In this document: positions 1 through 5,158 of the stretch, piece after piece
How the letters are laid out: each line of letters begins with the position of its first letter
Position numbering within the stretch: position 1 is the stretch's first letter
Source of the DNA: an uncultured bacterium
GTDB lineage: Bacteria > Auribacterota > JACPWU01
NCBI GenBank assembly: GCA_964640155.1
Contig: CAZXEQ010000014.1
Coordinates: 1-5,158 of the forward strand
DNA length: 5,158 bases
Direction of reading: 5' to 3'
The notes under the pieces: model-generated
The model's input: the letters and a program-made list of their open reading frames with translations, nothing else
Database searches by the model: none
Told to the model about the DNA's origin: nothing
Position numbers and translations under genes: made by a program

Positions 1-62
1 TTGTCGCAAAAATCAGTTCCAATTTTAATAAATATTTGAGATTGTCTAATTAATACAAGTCA

Positions 63-533
63 ATGTCGCAGAAAGGAATATTTTATATGCCAAATATGAG
101 CAATAAAACTTTTGAAGAACAAGAAAAAGAATTAAAACAAAAAGAAGAAGCCTTAGAGGGATTACGTCCAAGACAGAAAGCCTTTGTAAGAGAGCTATCA
201 AAACATAATTCAATTTCTGGAGCTGCAAGGGCAGCGGGATATGCCAATAAGACAGCAAATATAACTATATATCGTCAGATCAAATCTCCAAAGCTTCAAA
301 AGGCTATTGCCTTATATCACCAAATTGGAGACTTAGGATTGGCTGAGTTAGGTAGCGCGACTATTGCAGATCTTCTAACTTCCTCAAAAACCAAAGATGA
401 AATTCGTGCAAATGCAAGTCGATTGGCTTTTCAAGTTACAGGTAAGCTCAAGAACTTTAATGTTAATACTTCAACAAATCTAAATTTTGATGTTACAGAT
501 GAAATTATGAAGTTGTTGTCTGCTGATGACTAG
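63..533 (+). CDS. terS: Terminase small subunit-like HTH protein (Terminase_2-type pattern)
   Basis: 156-aa ORF. The segment RPRQKAFVRELSKHNSISGAARAAGYANKTANITIYRQIKSPKLQKAI fits the N-terminal HTH signature I know from Terminase_2-type small terminases (..kQ..Fv.eY....n...AA..AGYs.ktA......l....v..aI). The later SRLAFQVTGKL resembles the family's ..kAlEllgK.. segment. The start is uncertain. ATG 63 has no SD. In-frame ATG 87 is preceded by AAGGA (73-77, 9-nt spacer), and ATG 96 is also possible. Recognition is from memory of the family pattern, not a database search. Confidence 0.65.
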   Translation: MSQKGIFYMPNMSNKTFEEQEKELKQKEEALEGLRPRQKAFVRELSKHNSISGAARAAGYANKTANITIYRQIKSPKLQKAIALYHQIGDLGLAELGSATIADLLTSSKTKDEIRANASRLAFQVTGKLKNFNVNTSTNLNFDVTDEIMKLLSADD

Positions 534-535
534 TA

Positions 536-556
536 GGGGGTATAGGGGTAGCCCCC
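536..556 (+). terminator. Possible weak stem-loop or terminator immediately after the terS-like stop
   Basis: GGGGG (536-540) or GGGG (545-548) can pair with CCCCC (552-556). This is the only G/C-rich island in an AT-rich spacer. There is no canonical downstream U-tract (aagatactttgcttt follows), so terminator function is doubtful. Confidence 0.25.
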
Positions 557-701
557 AAGATACTTTGCTTTAAAGAATGTTTTAGGCTGATTTGAGACAC
601 GTGAGAATTTTTTGAAAAATAATTGAATTTTAATTCTGTTGTTTTTTTATTATTTCATGTCTTAAATCGCCTTCACTAATAAAATAGGTTAACAAGATGA
701 T

Positions 702-1583
702 ATGAAAGAGACCGAGATTATTCGTACTATTGTTCTTTTCCTTTATCAGAGTAAAAATAACTATGAAGACAAAAATATCAAACTTTTTAGCTCTAGTTTT
801 AGTCTATTGAAAGACAAGAAAGATTTTAAAGAAAACATTCAATTTCTAAGAAAATTTTATGGTGTATCTCCCTCGAGTTTTAACAAGGATCTTAATAAGT
901 TAAGAAATCTCACTAAGAAAATAAGAAAGACAGAGCGTCAAAAGGGAGAACAGCTCAAAAATAATAATCTAGATCCTTCATCGAAGGAGTTTCACGAAAA
1001 GTGGTTACATGTTCTTGAGAAAGATAGCCAATATCAAAAATTTAAAACACAAGAACAACCGATTTGGGAGAGAGTAAAATCTACTGTAATTAAGATGCCT
1101 GATGAAAAGATACTGGACTTGATTCGTAGATTTGGTTTATGGGGAGGATCGTTAGCTCTACGTTTTTATATTCTTACTAATGCTTTTTTACCAGCGTTAA
1201 TAAAAAAGGATAGAGTGAGAGCCCATTTAGGTTCTAATGATTTAGGAGAGCCAGAGGTGATTATTCATTTATCGCCATCTGTATCTAAAGAAGAGTTTAC
1301 GGATTTCTGGAAAGTAGTAAAAACTCTACAGAAGGATCTTCAAGGCGGAGAACTTAAACATAAACGTCTATCTCGCATCCCTGCACTTGATAGCTTCTTG
1401 ATTAAACACAAAAATTTAAAACCTAAATATATAATAATGCTACCCGAGTTTGAAAATATAGAGGAAAGATATAAAACAGAAGCCAAAAAAATAGATAGAA
1501 ACAAAAAATTTGACAAAAAAGATCCTTTTTCTATACAAGCGATTACAAAAAGACGTTCCAGATTAAAAAGAAAACTTTCATAA
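702..1583 (+). CDS. Hypothetical protein, 293 aa, Lys-rich, strongly basic C-terminal tail; no family recognised
   Basis: This is a long uninterrupted ORF on the same strand as its neighbours. Its composition is Lys/Glu/Asn-rich and it ends in KRRSRLKRKLS. No P-loop or catalytic motif is recognisable. A weak HTH-like stretch (NIQFLRKFYGVSPSSFNKDLNKLRNL) is only suggestive. There is no clear SD before ATG 702 (upstream aggttaacaagatgat). The next in-frame Met is about 130 codons downstream, so 702 is the likely start. Confidence 0.6.
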   Translation: MKETEIIRTIVLFLYQSKNNYEDKNIKLFSSSFSLLKDKKDFKENIQFLRKFYGVSPSSFNKDLNKLRNLTKKIRKTERQKGEQLKNNNLDPSSKEFHEKWLHVLEKDSQYQKFKTQEQPIWERVKSTVIKMPDEKILDLIRRFGLWGGSLALRFYILTNAFLPALIKKDRVRAHLGSNDLGEPEVIIHLSPSVSKEEFTDFWKVVKTLQKDLQGGELKHKRLSRIPALDSFLIKHKNLKPKYIIMLPEFENIEERYKTEAKKIDRNKKFDKKDPFSIQAITKRRSRLKRKLS

Positions 1584-1653
1584 AAATTCTTCTCTAGTAT
1601 TTCTTCTAACGGCACTCCTCAACTTCGTATTTGTGACATAAAACAATCTGCTT

Positions 1654-1664
1654 TCATGTCATGA
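1654..1664. promoter_or_regulatory. 11-bp palindrome TCATG-T-CATGA, a candidate operator upstream of the DUF5659-like gene
   Basis: Seen in the 121-bp spacer between ORF2 and ORF3. A TGACAT half-site is also present at 1634-1639, inverted relative to ATGTCA at 1656-1661. A related copy lies at 1986-1995. Confidence 0.25.
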
Positions 1665-1704
1665 AACCTATCTAGTGAAATGCAATACTCAAGTTAGATT
1701 TTAA

Positions 1705-1971
1705 ATGATGCTGAAAAATAAAGGGCTAGATATGAAAACAAATGAACTTTCAGATTTTACAACCGCAGATATCCAAGTAGCTGCATATTTGAAATCCAGT
1801 AATCTGGCTTTGACTGCAGTCCAAAAAGATGTCTCTGGACGGAGTAGATTCATTTTTAAGGACAAAACCAATTGTGAAGAGAAACTTGTTGATTATGCGA
1901 ATAATGCAAAAGTGCCAGTCAGAACATTGCTTTCAAATTTAAGAGATCTAAAAGGTTTAACACTTTCTTAA
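1705..1971 (+). CDS. Small DUF5659-like protein (phage/mobile-element protein of unknown function)
   Basis: 88-aa ORF. FTTADIQVAAYLKSSNLALTAVQKDVSGRSRFIFKDKTNCEEKLVDYANNAKVPVRTLLSNLRDLKGL matches the pattern I recall for DUF5659 (t.Dl.lAAyL..kg......r...gr..FvFed..e....i..y.n....V.a..f.nalr.LK.l). A better-supported start may be ATG 1732, which has AAGGG at 1721-1725 and a 6-nt spacer. That start gives 79 aa, whereas ATG 1705/1708 have no SD. Confidence 0.6.
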   Translation: MMLKNKGLDMKTNELSDFTTADIQVAAYLKSSNLALTAVQKDVSGRSRFIFKDKTNCEEKLVDYANNAKVPVRTLLSNLRDLKGLTLS

Positions 1972-1985
1972 TAATAAACTCAAAT

Positions 1986-1995
1986 ATGACATGAA
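1986..1995. promoter_or_regulatory. Second copy of the motif: ATGACATGAA, the reverse complement of TTCATGTCAT at 1653-1662, abutting the replicase SD
   Basis: This is a 10-bp exact inverted match to 1653-1662. Its last two bases overlap the replicase SD (AAGGAGA, 1994-2000). Confidence 0.2.
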
Positions 1996-2000
1996 GGAGA
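1994..2000 (+). promoter_or_regulatory. Shine-Dalgarno site of the replicase gene (AAGGAGA)
   Basis: It is complementary to the canonical anti-SD sequence and has a 7-nt spacer to ATG 2008. Confidence 0.6.
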
Positions 2001-2007
2001 ATATGAG

Positions 2008-4239
2008 ATGAATGCATCAATGGATGACATTAACATGCTTGAAGAAGCATTAAGTTATGTTAAACGCGGTTATAAAATCTTCCCACTACATACCCCCAAT
2101 ACTGAAGGCCTATGTTCTTGCGGTAACCTAAAATGTGAAAATATAGGGAAGCATCCAAGATATGAAAGCGGAACTCTAGAACATGGTTTAAAAGATGCAA
2201 CATCTGACGAAAGTAAAATTCGACATTGGTGGAGGAAATGGCCTGATGCAAATATAGGATTATTAACAGGTGAGATTGATAATTTAGTTGTATTAGATAT
2301 TGATAATGAAGAAGGATATGAGGCTCTTGCAAAACTTATTCAAGCCCACGGTCAAATTCAATCGACCTATAAAGTTAAAACTACAAGGGGAGAACATCGG
2401 TATTTTGCCCATCCTTTAAACGGAACAAAGATAAAAAGTATTTCAGCCTTAGGAGGATTCAAAGGACTAGATGTTAGAGCTGACGGAGGATATGTTGTTG
2501 CGGCGAATTCTCTTAGACGTGATGGAAAACGATATTCTTCAACACAATCTCTTCTAAAGGATAATCTTGCTGCAATCCCTGAGTGGTTACTTGGATTAAT
2601 GCAATCTAGTCATACAACTTTATCTGGTTTTAATAAATCTTTAGATTGTACTCTATCTGATAGCAAGAAAAATGTCCCTGTAGCAGAAATTTTAGAAGGG
2701 GTTAAGGAGGGAGAAAGAGATAATTCTATTTTTCGTTTGGCTTGTAAGCTTAGACGTGCGGATATCCCAAAAGAAATCGCGATCAAATTAGTTTTAGATG
2801 CTGCCTCTAAATGCACGCCGCCTTTTCCAATAGACCAAACGATAAAAAAAGTTGAAACCGTGTATACCCGTTATCCCGCAGGAACTTATTCTTCCTCGCT
2901 TTTGACTGAGAATTATGGAGATTTGTCGTTTCGGTCGTTTATGTCGTTGGATTCACTTCATGATTTTACTATTACGGATAATTGGCCAAAACCGATTCCT
3001 GAAGAGGGATATTATGGAGTTGTAGGTGAAATAGTTCGATTAATTGAACCGCATACAGAATCTGATGTTTCGGCATTGATGCTTCAATTACTGATAGCTT
3101 TTGGAAATGTTTTAGGAAGACATGCGTACTTTTTAGTTGAATCAACTCGACATTATACAAATTTGTACGGTGCATTAGTAGGTCAGACAGCAAAAGGAAG
3201 AAAAGGAACAGCTTGGGCACATGTAAAAAGAATTATCACCGAAGTAGATGCATTCTGGGCGCAAGAACGTGTTCTGGGAGGATTATCAAGCGGGGAAGGG
3301 TTAATACATTTTCTTCGTGATGTGAATTTAGGTGAGTCATCTACATCTGATAGTTCCGTTGAGTTAAATAATCTTGATCGTAGAATGTTAGTTGTAGAAT
3401 CCGAATTTGGCGGTACATTACAAATTCTACAAAGAGATAAAAATTCCTTAAGTGCAATACTAAGGCAAGGTTGGGATTATGGTGATTTAAGAGTTTTAAC
3501 GAAAAATTCCCCTTTAAAAGCTACAGGCGCACATCTTTCATGTATTTTCCACATCACTAAAGCAGATCTAACAAAGTATTTTACAAACACTGATGCTGCA
3601 AATGGTTTTGGAAACAGAATTCTATGGGTGCTTGTTCGTCGTTCCAAGTGCTTGCCTGAAGGGGGAGATGTTACATCAATAGATTTTTCAGTGATTATTA
3701 AAAAACTTCATAAAGCTATAGAGTTTGCAAACAACCCTTCTAGGATAGCATTCGATAAAAACGCTAAAGCAATTTGGTATAGCGTGTATCCAGAACTTTC
3801 AAAAGGTGCTCCTGGTTTATTCGGCTCCGTGACCTCAAGAGCCGAAGCTCAGGTTATTCGACTTGCCTTGCTATATGCTCTTTTAGATACCTCTCCTTTA
3901 ATCAGCAAAGAACACCTTTTAGCTGCTTTGGCCATTTGGGAATACTGCGAAGCTTCATCACGGTGTATTTTTGGAAGCTCAATCGGGGACTCTATTGCAG
4001 ACAAAATATTAGGTGCCCTGAAAGATAGTGAAGCTGGAATGACTAGGACTGACATACGAGATCTTTTTAAGAACAATAAAAACTCTTTAGAGATTGATAG
4101 AGCTCTTCATTTTTTATTAGAAGCAGATTTGGTTTTTTTTAAATTGGATGATTTTTCGAACGGAAGACCTGCAGAAAGATGGTTTACAAAAAAACAATCT
4201 ACGACTGAAACGACCGAAACGACAGAAGGACAACATTAA
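2008..4239 (+). CDS. Multidomain replicase: bifunctional primase-polymerase (PrimPol) N-domain + PriCT-like + DUF3987-like helicase-related region + C-terminal winged-helix-like domain
   Basis: Strong SD AAGGAGA (1994-2000) lies 7 nt before ATG 2008. (a) PrimPol, aa ~12-195 (nt ~2041-2592): YKIFPL, GKHP, DATSDESKIRHWW, the acidic metal motif VVLDIDN (D97/D99, nt 2296-2304), GEHRYF, and GLDVRADGGYVVAANS. (b) PriCT-like, aa ~225-288 (nt ~2680-2871): GERDNSIFRLACKLRRADIPKEIAIKLVLDAA. (c) DUF3987-like, aa ~324-625 (nt ~2977-3882): NWPKPIPEE...YGVVGEIVRLIEPHTESDVSALMLQLLIAFGNVLGR...NLYGALVGQTAKGRKGTAW...LVVESEFG. (d) wHTH-like tail, aa ~676-725: GMTRTDIRDLF...IDRALHFLLEADLVFF...NGRPAERW. The protein ends in a (TTE)x3 tail. 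Confidence 0.9.
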   Translation: MNASMDDINMLEEALSYVKRGYKIFPLHTPNTEGLCSCGNLKCENIGKHPRYESGTLEHGLKDATSDESKIRHWWRKWPDANIGLLTGEIDNLVVLDIDNEEGYEALAKLIQAHGQIQSTYKVKTTRGEHRYFAHPLNGTKIKSISALGGFKGLDVRADGGYVVAANSLRRDGKRYSSTQSLLKDNLAAIPEWLLGLMQSSHTTLSGFNKSLDCTLSDSKKNVPVAEILEGVKEGERDNSIFRLACKLRRADIPKEIAIKLVLDAASKCTPPFPIDQTIKKVETVYTRYPAGTYSSSLLTENYGDLSFRSFMSLDSLHDFTITDNWPKPIPEEGYYGVVGEIVRLIEPHTESDVSALMLQLLIAFGNVLGRHAYFLVESTRHYTNLYGALVGQTAKGRKGTAWAHVKRIITEVDAFWAQERVLGGLSSGEGLIHFLRDVNLGESSTSDSSVELNNLDRRMLVVESEFGGTLQILQRDKNSLSAILRQGWDYGDLRVLTKNSPLKATGAHLSCIFHITKADLTKYFTNTDAANGFGNRILWVLVRRSKCLPEGGDVTSIDFSVIIKKLHKAIEFANNPSRIAFDKNAKAIWYSVYPELSKGAPGLFGSVTSRAEAQVIRLALLYALLDTSPLISKEHLLAALAIWEYCEASSRCIFGSSIGDSIADKILGALKDSEAGMTRTDIRDLFKNNKNSLEIDRALHFLLEADLVFFKLDDFSNGRPAERWFTKKQSTTETTETTEGQH
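2924..2950 (+). repeat. Three tandem 9-bp units TGTCGTTTC / GGTCGTTTA / TGTCGTTGG (GTCGTT core at 2925, 2934, 2943)
   Basis: Read directly from the sequence. It is in frame and encodes LSFRSFMSL (aa 306-314), in the linker between the PriCT-like and DUF3987-like regions. Positions 2924-2940 are the exact reverse complement of 4208-4224. Confidence 0.85.
4201..4227 (+). repeat. Three tandem 9-bp units ACGACTGAA / ACGACCGAA / ACGACAGAA, the inverted partner of the 2924-2950 array
   Basis: Read directly from the sequence. It encodes TTETTETTE (aa 732-740), and the units differ only at one synonymous third position. Positions 4208-4224 (AAACGACCGAAACGACA) are the reverse complement of 2924-2940 (TGTCGTTTCGGTCGTTT). 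An AT-rich spacer (4240-4264) follows the stop codon. Confidence 0.85.
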
Positions 4240-4272
4240 GCTTAACTAACATAAAAATATTAAAGAGGGAAA

Positions 4273-4473
4273 ATGGGCCGCTATCTTAACATTGCACATG
4301 AAGTGTTGGCAAAGATGACAAAAAATGAAAACGATGAACAGAAAGTAGTTAGTAGAGAAGAACAAATGATAAACGATCCTTTAGTTAAATATGCATTAGA
4401 TCTATTTCAGGGCGAAATAATCTCGATAGAATCCAAAGATACAGCTCTCAATTCCAAGGAGTTTCAAAAATAG
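4273..4473 (+). CDS. Hypothetical small protein (66 aa)
   Basis: SD-like AGAGGG (4264-4269) lies just upstream of ATG 4273. The ORF exactly fills the gap between the replicase and the methylase, and its TAG stop overlaps the methylase GTG start (TAGTG, 4471-4475). No family is recognised. Confidence 0.5.
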   Translation: MGRYLNIAHEVLAKMTKNENDEQKVVSREEQMINDPLVKYALDLFQGEIISIESKDTALNSKEFQK

Positions 4474-5132
4474 TGATCACCCAATCTGAAAATGGTATTA
4501 ACCAACCACTGGAAGAAATAAGCACTACTGAAACGAGTTTTCCAGAGGGCAGATACGAAATCATCGTCATCGATCCACCTTGGCCTTACGGTACTTTTTA
4601 TGATCCAGTGGGGAGAAAGGTGGCTAGTCCTTATCCTGAAATGAGCTTGCAAGCAATTGAAGATATTCTTGATCCAACGCTAATAGCAGATGACTGCATC
4701 CTATGGCTTTGGTCCACACATAAATTTCTGTTCGATGCGAAGCAAATCTTAGATAAATGGGGGTTTAAATATAAGAGCCTCCTAATTTGGAATAAGGGAA
4801 AAATGGGGATGGGCTACTGGTTTAGGATGCAATGCGAATTCTGTTTTTTGGGGATTAAAGGTAAACCTGTTTGGGGTATTACTAACCTAAGAGATATTAT
4901 AGAAGAGCCGAGAAGAGAACACTCCCGTAAACCAGAAGGCTTCTACAAGATGATAGATAGTTATTTCCCAGGAAGGAAGAAATTAGATTTCTTCTCTAGA
5001 GAACAAAGACCTGGTTGGGACCAGTATGGAAACGAAACAACAAAGTTCAAGAATCACCTAGCCTTTCAGGGCAAAGGAGGTATAGAAATCAGCTGGAAGT
5101 CGCAGGAAAAACAAGATGCTATTTCTGCTTGA
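4473..5132 (+). CDS. MT-A70-family N6-adenine DNA methyltransferase (orphan within the window)
   Basis: Catalytic motif IV, DPPW, sits in IIVIDPPWPYG (D34-W37, nt 4572-4583). The typical MT-A70 C-terminal block is present: EHSRKPEGFYKMIDSYFPGRKKLDFFSREQRPGWDQYGNE (consensus as I recall it: HSrKP...y..ie......rlELFaR....gWd.wGne). The only in-frame start upstream of DPPW is GTG 4473. AAGGAG at 4456-4461 lies 11 nt upstream. Confidence 0.9.
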   Translation: MITQSENGINQPLEEISTTETSFPEGRYEIIVIDPPWPYGTFYDPVGRKVASPYPEMSLQAIEDILDPTLIADDCILWLWSTHKFLFDAKQILDKWGFKYKSLLIWNKGKMGMGYWFRMQCEFCFLGIKGKPVWGITNLRDIIEEPRREHSRKPEGFYKMIDSYFPGRKKLDFFSREQRPGWDQYGNETTKFKNHLAFQGKGGIEISWKSQEKQDAISA

Positions 5133-5158
5133 GTAGGGCTTGAAGAGTCCAGATCACA

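Follow-up and report, generated by a model that had tools for sequence, protein, structure and literature searches.

Why should a replicase gene carry two opposed arrays of the same short repeat, one at each end of the part that encodes its helicase? The question is raised by a 5,158-nucleotide stretch of DNA from an uncultured bacterium (GTDB lineage Bacteria; Auribacterota; JACPWU01), referred to here in its whole length as the window (GenBank assembly GCA_964640155.1, contig CAZXEQ010000014.1, positions 1 to 5,158 of the forward strand). A predicted primase-helicase gene in this window holds one array of three 9-bp units in the linker that precedes its helicase module and a second one, in inverted orientation, at its 3' end. 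A first-pass annotation of the window had offered three explanations, namely initiator-binding iterons of an origin embedded in the gene, an invertible DNA segment, and long-range pairing within the mRNA. Comparison with distant relatives favors the first of these in a modified form. The arrays are very probably the cognate iterons of a replication origin resembling those of phage-inducible chromosomal islands (PICIs), which include the Staphylococcus aureus pathogenicity islands (SaPIs). The fuller reading, in which the winged-helix domain of the encoded protein recognizes both arrays and the left half of a PICI/SaPI-type origin has been displaced upstream, is also considered probable, with somewhat less assurance.

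The Arrays and the Primase-Helicase Gene That Carries Them

The right array (4201–4227, + strand) consists of the head-to-tail units ACGACTGAA ACGACCGAA ACGACAGAA, which follow the pattern ACGAC-nG-AA, and the left array (2924–2950, − strand) of the units TGTCGTTTC GGTCGTTTA TGTCGTTGG, in which GTCGT is the reverse complement of ACGAC. The three-unit structure of both, recognized in the first-pass annotation, was confirmed in the sequence and by Tandem Repeats Finder. An inverted-repeat search of the window ranked first a pair of 24-nt arms (2924–2947 and 4201–4224) that are 92% complementary and lie 1253 nt from each other; their perfect core of 17 nt (2924–2940 and 4208–4224) is the longest perfect inverted repeat present. 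The exact reverse complementarity of these 17 nt had been reported as an unlikely chance match, and it is indeed rare, a perfect inverted repeat having reached 17 nt in 1 of 300 dinucleotide shuffles of the window. Since seven of the nine unit positions are fixed by the iteron consensus described below, the perfect 17-mer needs only about three extra matching bases, and it is a by-product of two arrays of one site, with no separate existence as a feature. The heptamer GTCGTTT occurs four times in the window against an expectation of 0.34, a count reached in none of 200 shuffles. Matches to the iteron with at most one mismatch number 22 (12.6 ± 3.4 expected), four of them being the exact array copies. 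The looser single copies that had been listed at 3638, 4524–4537, and 5029–5035 do not withstand this comparison, as they are isolated one-mismatch matches that do not exceed chance and do not form phased arrays.

Both arrays are translated in the frame of the replicase gene (2008–4239, + strand; 743 amino acids). The left array encodes residues 306–314 (LSFRSFMSL), 12 codons before WPxP, the conserved motif with which the helicase module starts, and the right array encodes residues 732–740 (TTETTETTE) in the C-terminal tail, its last nucleotide (4227) preceding the stop codon (4237–4239) by 9 nt. The units of the right array differ from one another at one synonymous position only, and position 7 is G in all three (GAA, Glu), so that the reading frame stays open through the array.

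The encoded protein combines PrimPol, PriCT_1, and DUF3987 (MCM-like AAA+) helicase domains with a C-terminal winged helix. Pfam places the first three at residues 14–193, 228–286, and 453–656 (E-values of 9e-35, 2.4e-6, and 7e-16, respectively), and the family's invariant GxTxKGRKGT motif (K399, G400) and acidic residues E464 and E466 are present. These domains and residues, together with the MCM-like fold, are those of AgaPH-like PrimPol-PriCT-DUF3987 primase-helicases. An AlphaFold2 model built from 94 sequences (predicted local distance difference test score, pLDDT, of 88) divides into PrimPol, a helical PriCT domain, the AAA+ module, and the C-terminal winged helix. In Foldseek searches, the helicase and winged helix matched MCM2-7 and archaeal MCM and the N-terminus matched the pRN1 primase; a phmmer search of PDB chains gave no sequence match. 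The winged helix (3985–4191, + strand; residues 660–728) is modeled as helices at residues 662–673, 680–686, and 693–705 followed by a β hairpin at 709–727, and alignment of the family revealed a conserved GRPxERW wing. The sole long segments of low confidence are residues 203–221, residues 293–323, and the extreme C-terminus. The pLDDT falls below 50 over residues 293–323, a predicted disordered linker that contains the left-array peptide, and the right-array peptide lies in the low-confidence tail; the model thus agrees with the earlier placement of the arrays in the interdomain linker and the (TTE)3 tail. Helicase activity has been demonstrated for a DUF3987 protein (PMC11724360). A literature search found no description of an origin or of iterons for the DUF3987 primase-helicase family.

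A Conserved Array near the Helicase Stop Codon

The window has no close relative. When its full length was compared by megablast with phage and plasmid collections, no match was returned; the 90% identity cluster of its replicase has one member, the nearest proteins are 45–48% identical, and viral contigs yielded only two distant relatives, at 27–28% identity. A deep comparison of distant loci was therefore used, comprising 160 relatives at 35–55% identity, of which 80 are metagenomic and 80 come from GTDB genomes of many phyla. Many of these loci encode stand-alone helicases that start at query residue ~310–325.

The first sign of a conserved array appeared in the protein alignment, as tails rich in T, K, E, and N beyond the GRPxERW motif. 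A frame-free scan for any 5-mer occurring three times with a 9-bp period placed arrays at or over the helicase stop codon in most of 128 complete loci; under the strict criterion of three units within −200 to +250 of that codon, an array was found in 83 of 129 complete loci. Array density in this interval was 2.37 per kb, as opposed to 0.031 per kb elsewhere, a 76-fold enrichment, and the arrays of the relatives sit at −40 to +10 of the stop codon. The consensus of 432 units is R-C-G-A/c-A/C-n-w-A-A (RCGAM-nw-AA). Its 5-nt core varies among loci and includes ACGAA, GCGAA, ACGAC, GCGAC, GCGCA, ACGCG, GCGGA, GCGAG, and others, but within one locus the arrays always have a matching core, in opposite orientation. 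Whether the two arms co-vary in homologous genes had been singled out beforehand as a means of examining the iteron idea, and they do: cores match within each locus and differ between loci.

Most loci possess a second, inverted array of the same core, usually starting 38–79 bp after the first and leaving ~15–55 bp between the two, and 34 loci have strict three-unit arrays on both sides in this + then − layout. The start-to-start spacing of such pairs is quantized at 38–40, 47–51, 58–59, 71, and 79 bp (e.g., L003, L017, L045, L062, and L149), and the ~10-bp steps suggest a face-of-helix constraint between two bound complexes. The spacer between the opposed arrays is often G+C-rich, not AT-rich. 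A minority of loci show the order − then +, with the arrays 79–265 bp apart, and in several of these (e.g., L027, L156, and L141) the + array lies inside the small gene downstream. A G-rich motif (GGGGAC) that had seemed to be conserved 5' of the inverted arrays was rejected, as the profile contained only C-TT, which is the unit boundary, and a weak G+C richness. Additional arrays were seen at L110, where seven (three − followed by four +) are spread across 530 bp (5287–5817), at L123, where a second +/− pair lies 760 bp downstream (6021–6091), and at L022, which has a third array (5574–5596).

The peptides encoded by these arrays track the local core and are unrelated in other respects, as illustrated by TKETNETN, AEKAEKAEK, AHKAHKAH, ARKARKARK, ESEESEES, VVNVVSVV, and RVNRVNRV. 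Many arrays cross the stop codon, the TAA being supplied by the wAA of the unit (positions 7–9), as in three copies of ACGAATTAA, and other arrays are located wholly outside the open reading frame. Because the peptides vary widely and the arrays run through stop codons, the constraint acts on the DNA and not on the peptide. Helicase genes that end on an iteron-borne TAA (ACGAATTAA) were seen, e.g., at L149 (5285–5311), L083, L051, L085, and L107. At the two variable positions of the unit, the identity of + and − arrays was 0.33–0.53, with ~0.38 expected from composition. As these positions match at about chance level only, the arrays are not selected as a stem, and they have the signature of a protein site.

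A search of viral contigs (IMG/VR; L168–L195), a collection that lacks power for the DUF3987 primase-helicase family, found 28 exact matches to ACGACnnAAACGACnnAAACGAC. All of these are simple tandem repeats, mostly coding and usually with identical units, and none has an inverted partner or a DUF3987 helicase nearby. Examples are (TTE)n, (DEN)n, and (TTK)n, with up to 10 or more identical units, and several of the matches are in metagenome-assembled genomes of giant viruses.

Residue–Base Co-variation in the Winged Helix

Alignment of 71–106 distinct C-terminal domains against their iteron cores identified two residues (window numbering) that co-vary with the DNA. Residue 690 (codon 4075–4077, + strand; Asn in the window) follows core position 1, Asn accompanying A and His accompanying G. 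All 47 loci with an A-start core have Asn at this residue and 38 of 46 with a G-start core have His, while six cases of G with Asn are mis-registered ACGC[CG] arrays; this amounts to 0.98 of 0.98 bits of mutual information. Residue 684 (codon 4057–4059, + strand; Arg in the window) follows core position 5, where Arg accompanies C and Ser, His, Asn, or Tyr accompanies A. Of the 30 loci having C there, 25 have Arg, with mutual information of 0.79 of 1.53 bits. In addition, xCGCG cores accompany Asn or Asp at residue 681.

All four combinations of Asn or His with Ser or Arg were found, each with the matching core. On a neighbor-joining tree of the helicase core alone, which is crude, core position 1 and residue 690 each require 18 parsimony changes. 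The pairing of asparagine with adenine, and of arginine or histidine with guanine, is textbook direct readout. The window protein has the sequence TRTDIRDLFKNNK here (Arg684, Asn690); under this code, the two residues predict the core ACGAC, which is the core of both window arrays. The C-terminal winged helix, as modeled, is therefore the likely reader of the iterons, although two features of the co-variation that temper this assignment are taken up below.

The Recurrent Linker Array

The left array is not peculiar to the window. Nine further loci have an inverted array of their own core upstream of the WPxP motif, with three units each in L024, L030, L060, L096, L117, L140, and L152/153, two exact cores within a three-slot frame in L157, and two units in L011. 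It lies 3–25 codons upstream of WPxP in most loci and farther away in L011 and L157, and the edge-to-edge distance from linker array to 3' array is 1178–1289 nt. The linker cores GTCGT, TTCGC, CGCGT, CGCGC, and GTCGC are each the reverse complement of the 3' array of the same locus, and the opposite orientation, scored as at least two units at the linker position, occurred in 0 of 65 loci. All but L030 share a reading frame in which CG occupies codon positions 2–3, giving xSxxSxxSx (TCG) or xAxxAxxAx (GCG); in L030, CG is at codon positions 1–2 and the array reads SAFTASTAY.

The loci with a linker array are not each other's nearest relatives, so the array is either old and often lost or repeatedly gained. 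Its presence is negatively associated with that of the proximal inverted array, which is present in 47 and absent from 7 loci without a linker array and present in 3 and absent from 6 with one (Fisher p = 0.0015; p = 0.005 with the duplicate L152/153 pair merged). This negative association suggests that the linker array may substitute for the proximal partner. The window falls into the class that has both a left and a right array but lacks the proximal partner. From these comparisons, the right array (4201–4227) would be the position-conserved anchor of the family's origin and the left array a recurrent minority partner or auxiliary site. The proposal that the arrays are initiator-binding iterons, with the winged helix-turn-helix tail as their reader, therefore gains strong support from the family arrays and from the co-variation, while the part of it that embedded the origin in the linker does not describe the general design.

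A different arrangement is found in the island L163, whose gene order is integrase, HTH_17, PrimPol-DUF3987 and which also has the small downstream gene (from 12218). A + array at the rep stop codon has no adjacent partner, and two lone inverted arrays lie close to a DUF433/PIN pair in intergenic DNA, 6.2 kb (18390–18412) and 7.7 kb (19860–19882) downstream. Of these, one is the same 23-mer (GTCGTTTCGGTCGTTTATGTCGT) as the left array of the window, although identity between the two proteins is only ~44%. The same island also has an unrelated 9-bp array, three copies of CACGAAGGA, at 17002–17026.

A Candidate Origin of the Self-Loading Helicase Type

SaPIs and other PICIs encode a primase and an initiator-helicase, which are sometimes fused, and their Rep loads itself (PMC9371898; PMC6092414). 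Their origin lies directly 3' of rep and is built from penta- or hexanucleotide iterons, arranged as two opposed sets, to which the C-terminal winged helix of Rep binds (PMC9371898; PMC6092414). The system considered here is like those of SaPIbov1, SaPI1, SaPI5 (PriRep5), and EcCICFT073 in that the initiator is the helicase, sometimes fused to a primase, and in that the iterons would be read by a winged helix. In keeping with an origin directly 3' of the initiator-helicase gene, the right array of the window adjoins the stop codon, and the same-core + then − pairs of most relatives correspond to the opposed iteron sets. The experimentally validated ori of EcCICFT073 (E. coli CFT073; L167, 38997–39284) begins right after the stop codon and has TGTCTACC iterons with a 9-bp period in opposed sets. 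Its Pri-Rep is a D5_N/DUF5906/Pox_D5 protein and not a DUF3987 protein, and the 9-bp phasing that it shares with the DUF3987 loci may be convergent or may reflect a shared design of self-loading helicase origins.

The differences from PICIs concern both protein and DNA. The helicase of the window and its family is a DUF3987 MCM-like AAA+ module, unlike the D5-like superfamily 3 (SF3) helicase of EcCICFT073 or the SaPI Rep types; the arrays of the family have strictly three units and overlap the coding tail; and the opposite set of the window is 1.25 kb upstream, in the linker of the gene, instead of being adjacent across an AT-rich center. By analogy, the window would thus hold a PICI/SaPI-type self-loading helicase origin that is unusual in its coding overlap and split layout.

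Other well-known origins share single elements of this arrangement, and two of them, lambda ori and P4 ori/crr, had been cited as precedents in the first-pass annotation. In phage lambda, the initiator repeats of ori lie within gene O, in the segment for a flexible interdomain linker, much as the left array lies in the linker of its own initiator gene (pLDDT below 50, residues 293–323). Lambda O depends on P and DnaB, not being a helicase itself, and it acts on four 19-bp direct-repeat iterons next to an AT-rich region, whereas the window has two opposed triplets of 9-bp units, placed at separate points of the gene. The α primase-helicase of satellite phage P4, in which a DnaG-type primase is joined to an SF3/D5-like helicase, reads the same short octamer repeat (TGTTCACC) through its C-terminal domain at two separated sites, ori and crr, which lie ~4.5 kb apart and cooperate in cis. 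The window likewise has two separated clusters of one repeat, and in L163 such clusters are up to 7.7 kb apart; in P4, however, neither ori nor crr brackets the helicase-coding half of α. At the origins of SV40, other polyomaviruses, and papillomaviruses, opposed pentanucleotide sites (GAGGC for large T antigen, and the E1 sites) assemble a self-loading hexameric AAA+ helicase. These resemble the window in having a short direct-readout core repeated with fixed phasing, and differ in that the origin-binding domain is N-terminal to the helicase, where the window protein has a C-terminal winged helix, and in that they belong to eukaryotic viruses and their sites are non-coding. Iteron plasmids employ winged-helix initiators (pPS10 RepA, F RepE, R6K π) on direct iterons, with inverted copies serving autoregulation and handcuffing (PMC4980987). 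Their iterons are longer (~17–22 bp), the initiator is not a helicase, and the origin is upstream of rep, in all of which they differ from the DUF3987 loci.

In the mechanism proposed here, the right array would be the conserved half of an origin that in this family sits at the 3' end of the helicase gene and often within it. The left array would be the opposite-orientation half, which is 38–79 bp downstream in most relatives and here, as in about 10 other scattered lineages, lies 1.2–1.3 kb upstream in the linker. Winged-helix domains of a helicase oligomer would bind the 9-bp-phased sites by direct readout, with Asn690 contacting A at position 1 and Arg684 contacting the G opposite C at position 5, and the two opposed sets would recruit or position helicase complexes. 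Because of the 1.25-kb gap, cooperation of the sets would need protein-mediated looping, as between ori and crr of P4; otherwise, the left set would be auxiliary or regulatory. The split-origin and looping step is given slightly less than an even chance. As the sites lie in coding DNA, the iterons would have been placed in disordered protein segments, where they dictate the peptide.

Several points weigh against this interpretation of the window. The proximal inverted array typical of most relatives left no trace in the 33-nt intergenic spacer (4240–4272; 24% G+C), which is too short to hold one, nor was one found anywhere in 4228–5158. Opposed sets flanking an AT-rich center are thus absent from the window, where the opposite set is 1253 nt upstream, and a separation of the halves by 1.25 kb has no direct precedent among PICI origins. 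The composition profile of the window (36% G+C) contains no distinct AT-rich unwinding element or skew switch. No AT-rich element stands out beside the left array (2924–2950) either, which does occupy the linker position of a lambda-type in-gene origin. The residue–base co-variation could be inflated by cassette co-transfer of a linked C-terminal domain and origin, Arg684 is in helix 2 of the predicted winged helix and not in helix 3, the canonical recognition helix, and the crudeness of the neighbor-joining tree extends to the counts of state changes. Finally, three ACGACnnAA units by themselves are not diagnostic, because unrelated coding repeats of viral contigs match them.

Set against these points are the arrays themselves, their positional conservation, the co-variation of array with array and of protein with DNA, the helical-turn spacing, and the placement in disordered coding segments. 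What the reading would add to these observations is binding by the winged helix, origin activity, replacement of the proximal partner by the left array, and looping.

Alternative Explanations

The most serious alternative, although an unlikely one, is that only the right array is an origin half-site and that the left array is an autoregulatory or copy-control site, acting as a transcriptional roadblock or operator through initiator bound within its own gene, or as a handcuffing site that titrates the initiator, in the manner of the iterons and inverse repeats of iteron plasmids. The left array is at the junction where stand-alone helicase genes start (query residues ~310–325), as would fit an ancestral 5'-proximal operator; it occurs in only ~10% of loci; and the lone inverted arrays of L163, 6–8 kb from the gene, establish that arrays do exist away from the origin. 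The negative association between left and proximal arrays suggests substitution of one for the other, however, and not an added regulatory layer. No promoters or terminators were found at either window array, scan counts being at the level of shuffled sequence, and the lack of a promoter-like site near 2924–2950 counts against regulation there. The left array also stays within the open reading frame, stand-alone helicase genes included, and its frame is shared by nearly all loci.

The remaining explanations fare far worse. Inversion of the segment 2941–4207 would switch the gene between a full-length primase-helicase and a 313-residue protein with PrimPol and PriCT only. An inverted repeat of 17–24 bp does bracket the segment, and the inverted reading given in the first-pass annotation (..LSFRSFQS*, 313 residues) is arithmetically right, the inverted frame stopping after two codons. 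Inversion itself finds no support, as the window encodes no recombinase or invertase and helicase matches were colinear in all homologous loci found. Moreover, in most relatives the arrays are ~25 bp apart or the partner is outside the gene, and inversion there would give no such product; the arms share only ~3 bases beyond the iteron consensus; and the co-variation with winged-helix residues would be left unexplained. Inversion is accordingly regarded as very improbable.

An equally improbable proposal is that the two arms pair over a long range in the mRNA and regulate its translation or stability. A duplex of the two 24-nt arms is predicted to be stable (−36 kcal/mol), but both arms are translated and ribosomes would unwind it. 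In the family comparison, complementarity at the variable positions of the units is no better than chance, and many of the arrays are past the stop codon, outside the transcribed reading frame, or in the neighboring gene. The window has no Rfam match, and the 10-bp quantized spacing and the co-variation with protein residues point instead to recognition of duplex DNA.

Least probable of all is that (TTE)3 and (SF-x)3 are nothing more than low-complexity coding repeats that arose by slippage or peptide selection and are complementary by coincidence: the 28 ACGACnnAA-type triplets in viral contigs without a helicase nearby and the purely synonymous differences among the right units of the window would accord with this, but it is contradicted by the 76-fold positional conservation at the helicase stop codon while peptides change, by arrays that continue through or beyond stop codons, by the core common to inverted partners in every locus, by the co-variation of that core with residues of a separate domain, and by the recovery of a 17-nt inverted repeat in only 1 of 300 shuffles.

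Significance of the Proposed Origin

Integrative islands and phage satellites of many phyla commonly encode DUF3987 primase-helicases, and this large family is almost uncharacterized. If the iteron interpretation is correct, its origins would become predictable and could be annotated in thousands of metagenomic elements. Origin specificity would be readable from two protein residues, by which satellite incompatibility and cross-replication could be predicted and orthogonal self-loading replicons designed. The aspects of greatest interest are the location of an origin in disordered coding segments of its own initiator, the residue–base code, and the recurrent split layout. The first of these is a clean natural case of dual coding, in which DNA sites are accommodated in a disordered linker and tail and the peptide follows from the sequence of the site. 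The split layout lends itself to studies of how opposed iteron sets 1.25 kb apart cooperate in the loading of an MCM-like helicase and, if true, would constitute a bipartite self-loading helicase origin with the helicase gene as its spacer. The most general formulation, that of a family-wide in-gene origin with a two-residue code (690 and 684) that is split and looped around the helicase-coding DNA in a recurrent variant, is put forward only tentatively, at rather less than even odds.

Element Context and Neighboring Features

The gene content of the window fits a phage satellite or a small integrative element. A gene at 63–533 encodes a protein resembling terminase small subunits (TerS-like; weak Pfam match, PHROG match at 7e-9), which is a further likeness to PICIs, many of which have such a gene. 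The gene order of PICI-like satellites is int, (alpA/xis), pri-rep, ori, to which terS and phage-interference genes may be added. A DUF5659 protein is encoded directly upstream of the replicase gene (1705–1971), where relatives have an HTH_17/AlpA-like gene, and no integrase was found on the 5.2-kb contig. Downstream of the replicase is a small gene (4273–4473, + strand) for a 66-residue protein that starts with MGRYLNIAHEV. It has no Pfam or PHROG match and is syntenic with the post-origin gene of the relatives (MGxYLxxA), whose start motif across the family is M-G-[KR]-Y-L-[DEN]-[IL]-A. The next gene (4473–5132) encodes an MT-A70 DNA methyltransferase, and its GTG start codon overlaps the stop codon of the small gene. 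Apart from the iteron arrays, an imperfect 12-bp tandem repeat (TTTTAGTCTAG, 1.9 copies) occurs at 785–806 in an unannotated open reading frame of 293 amino acids and is probably trivial.

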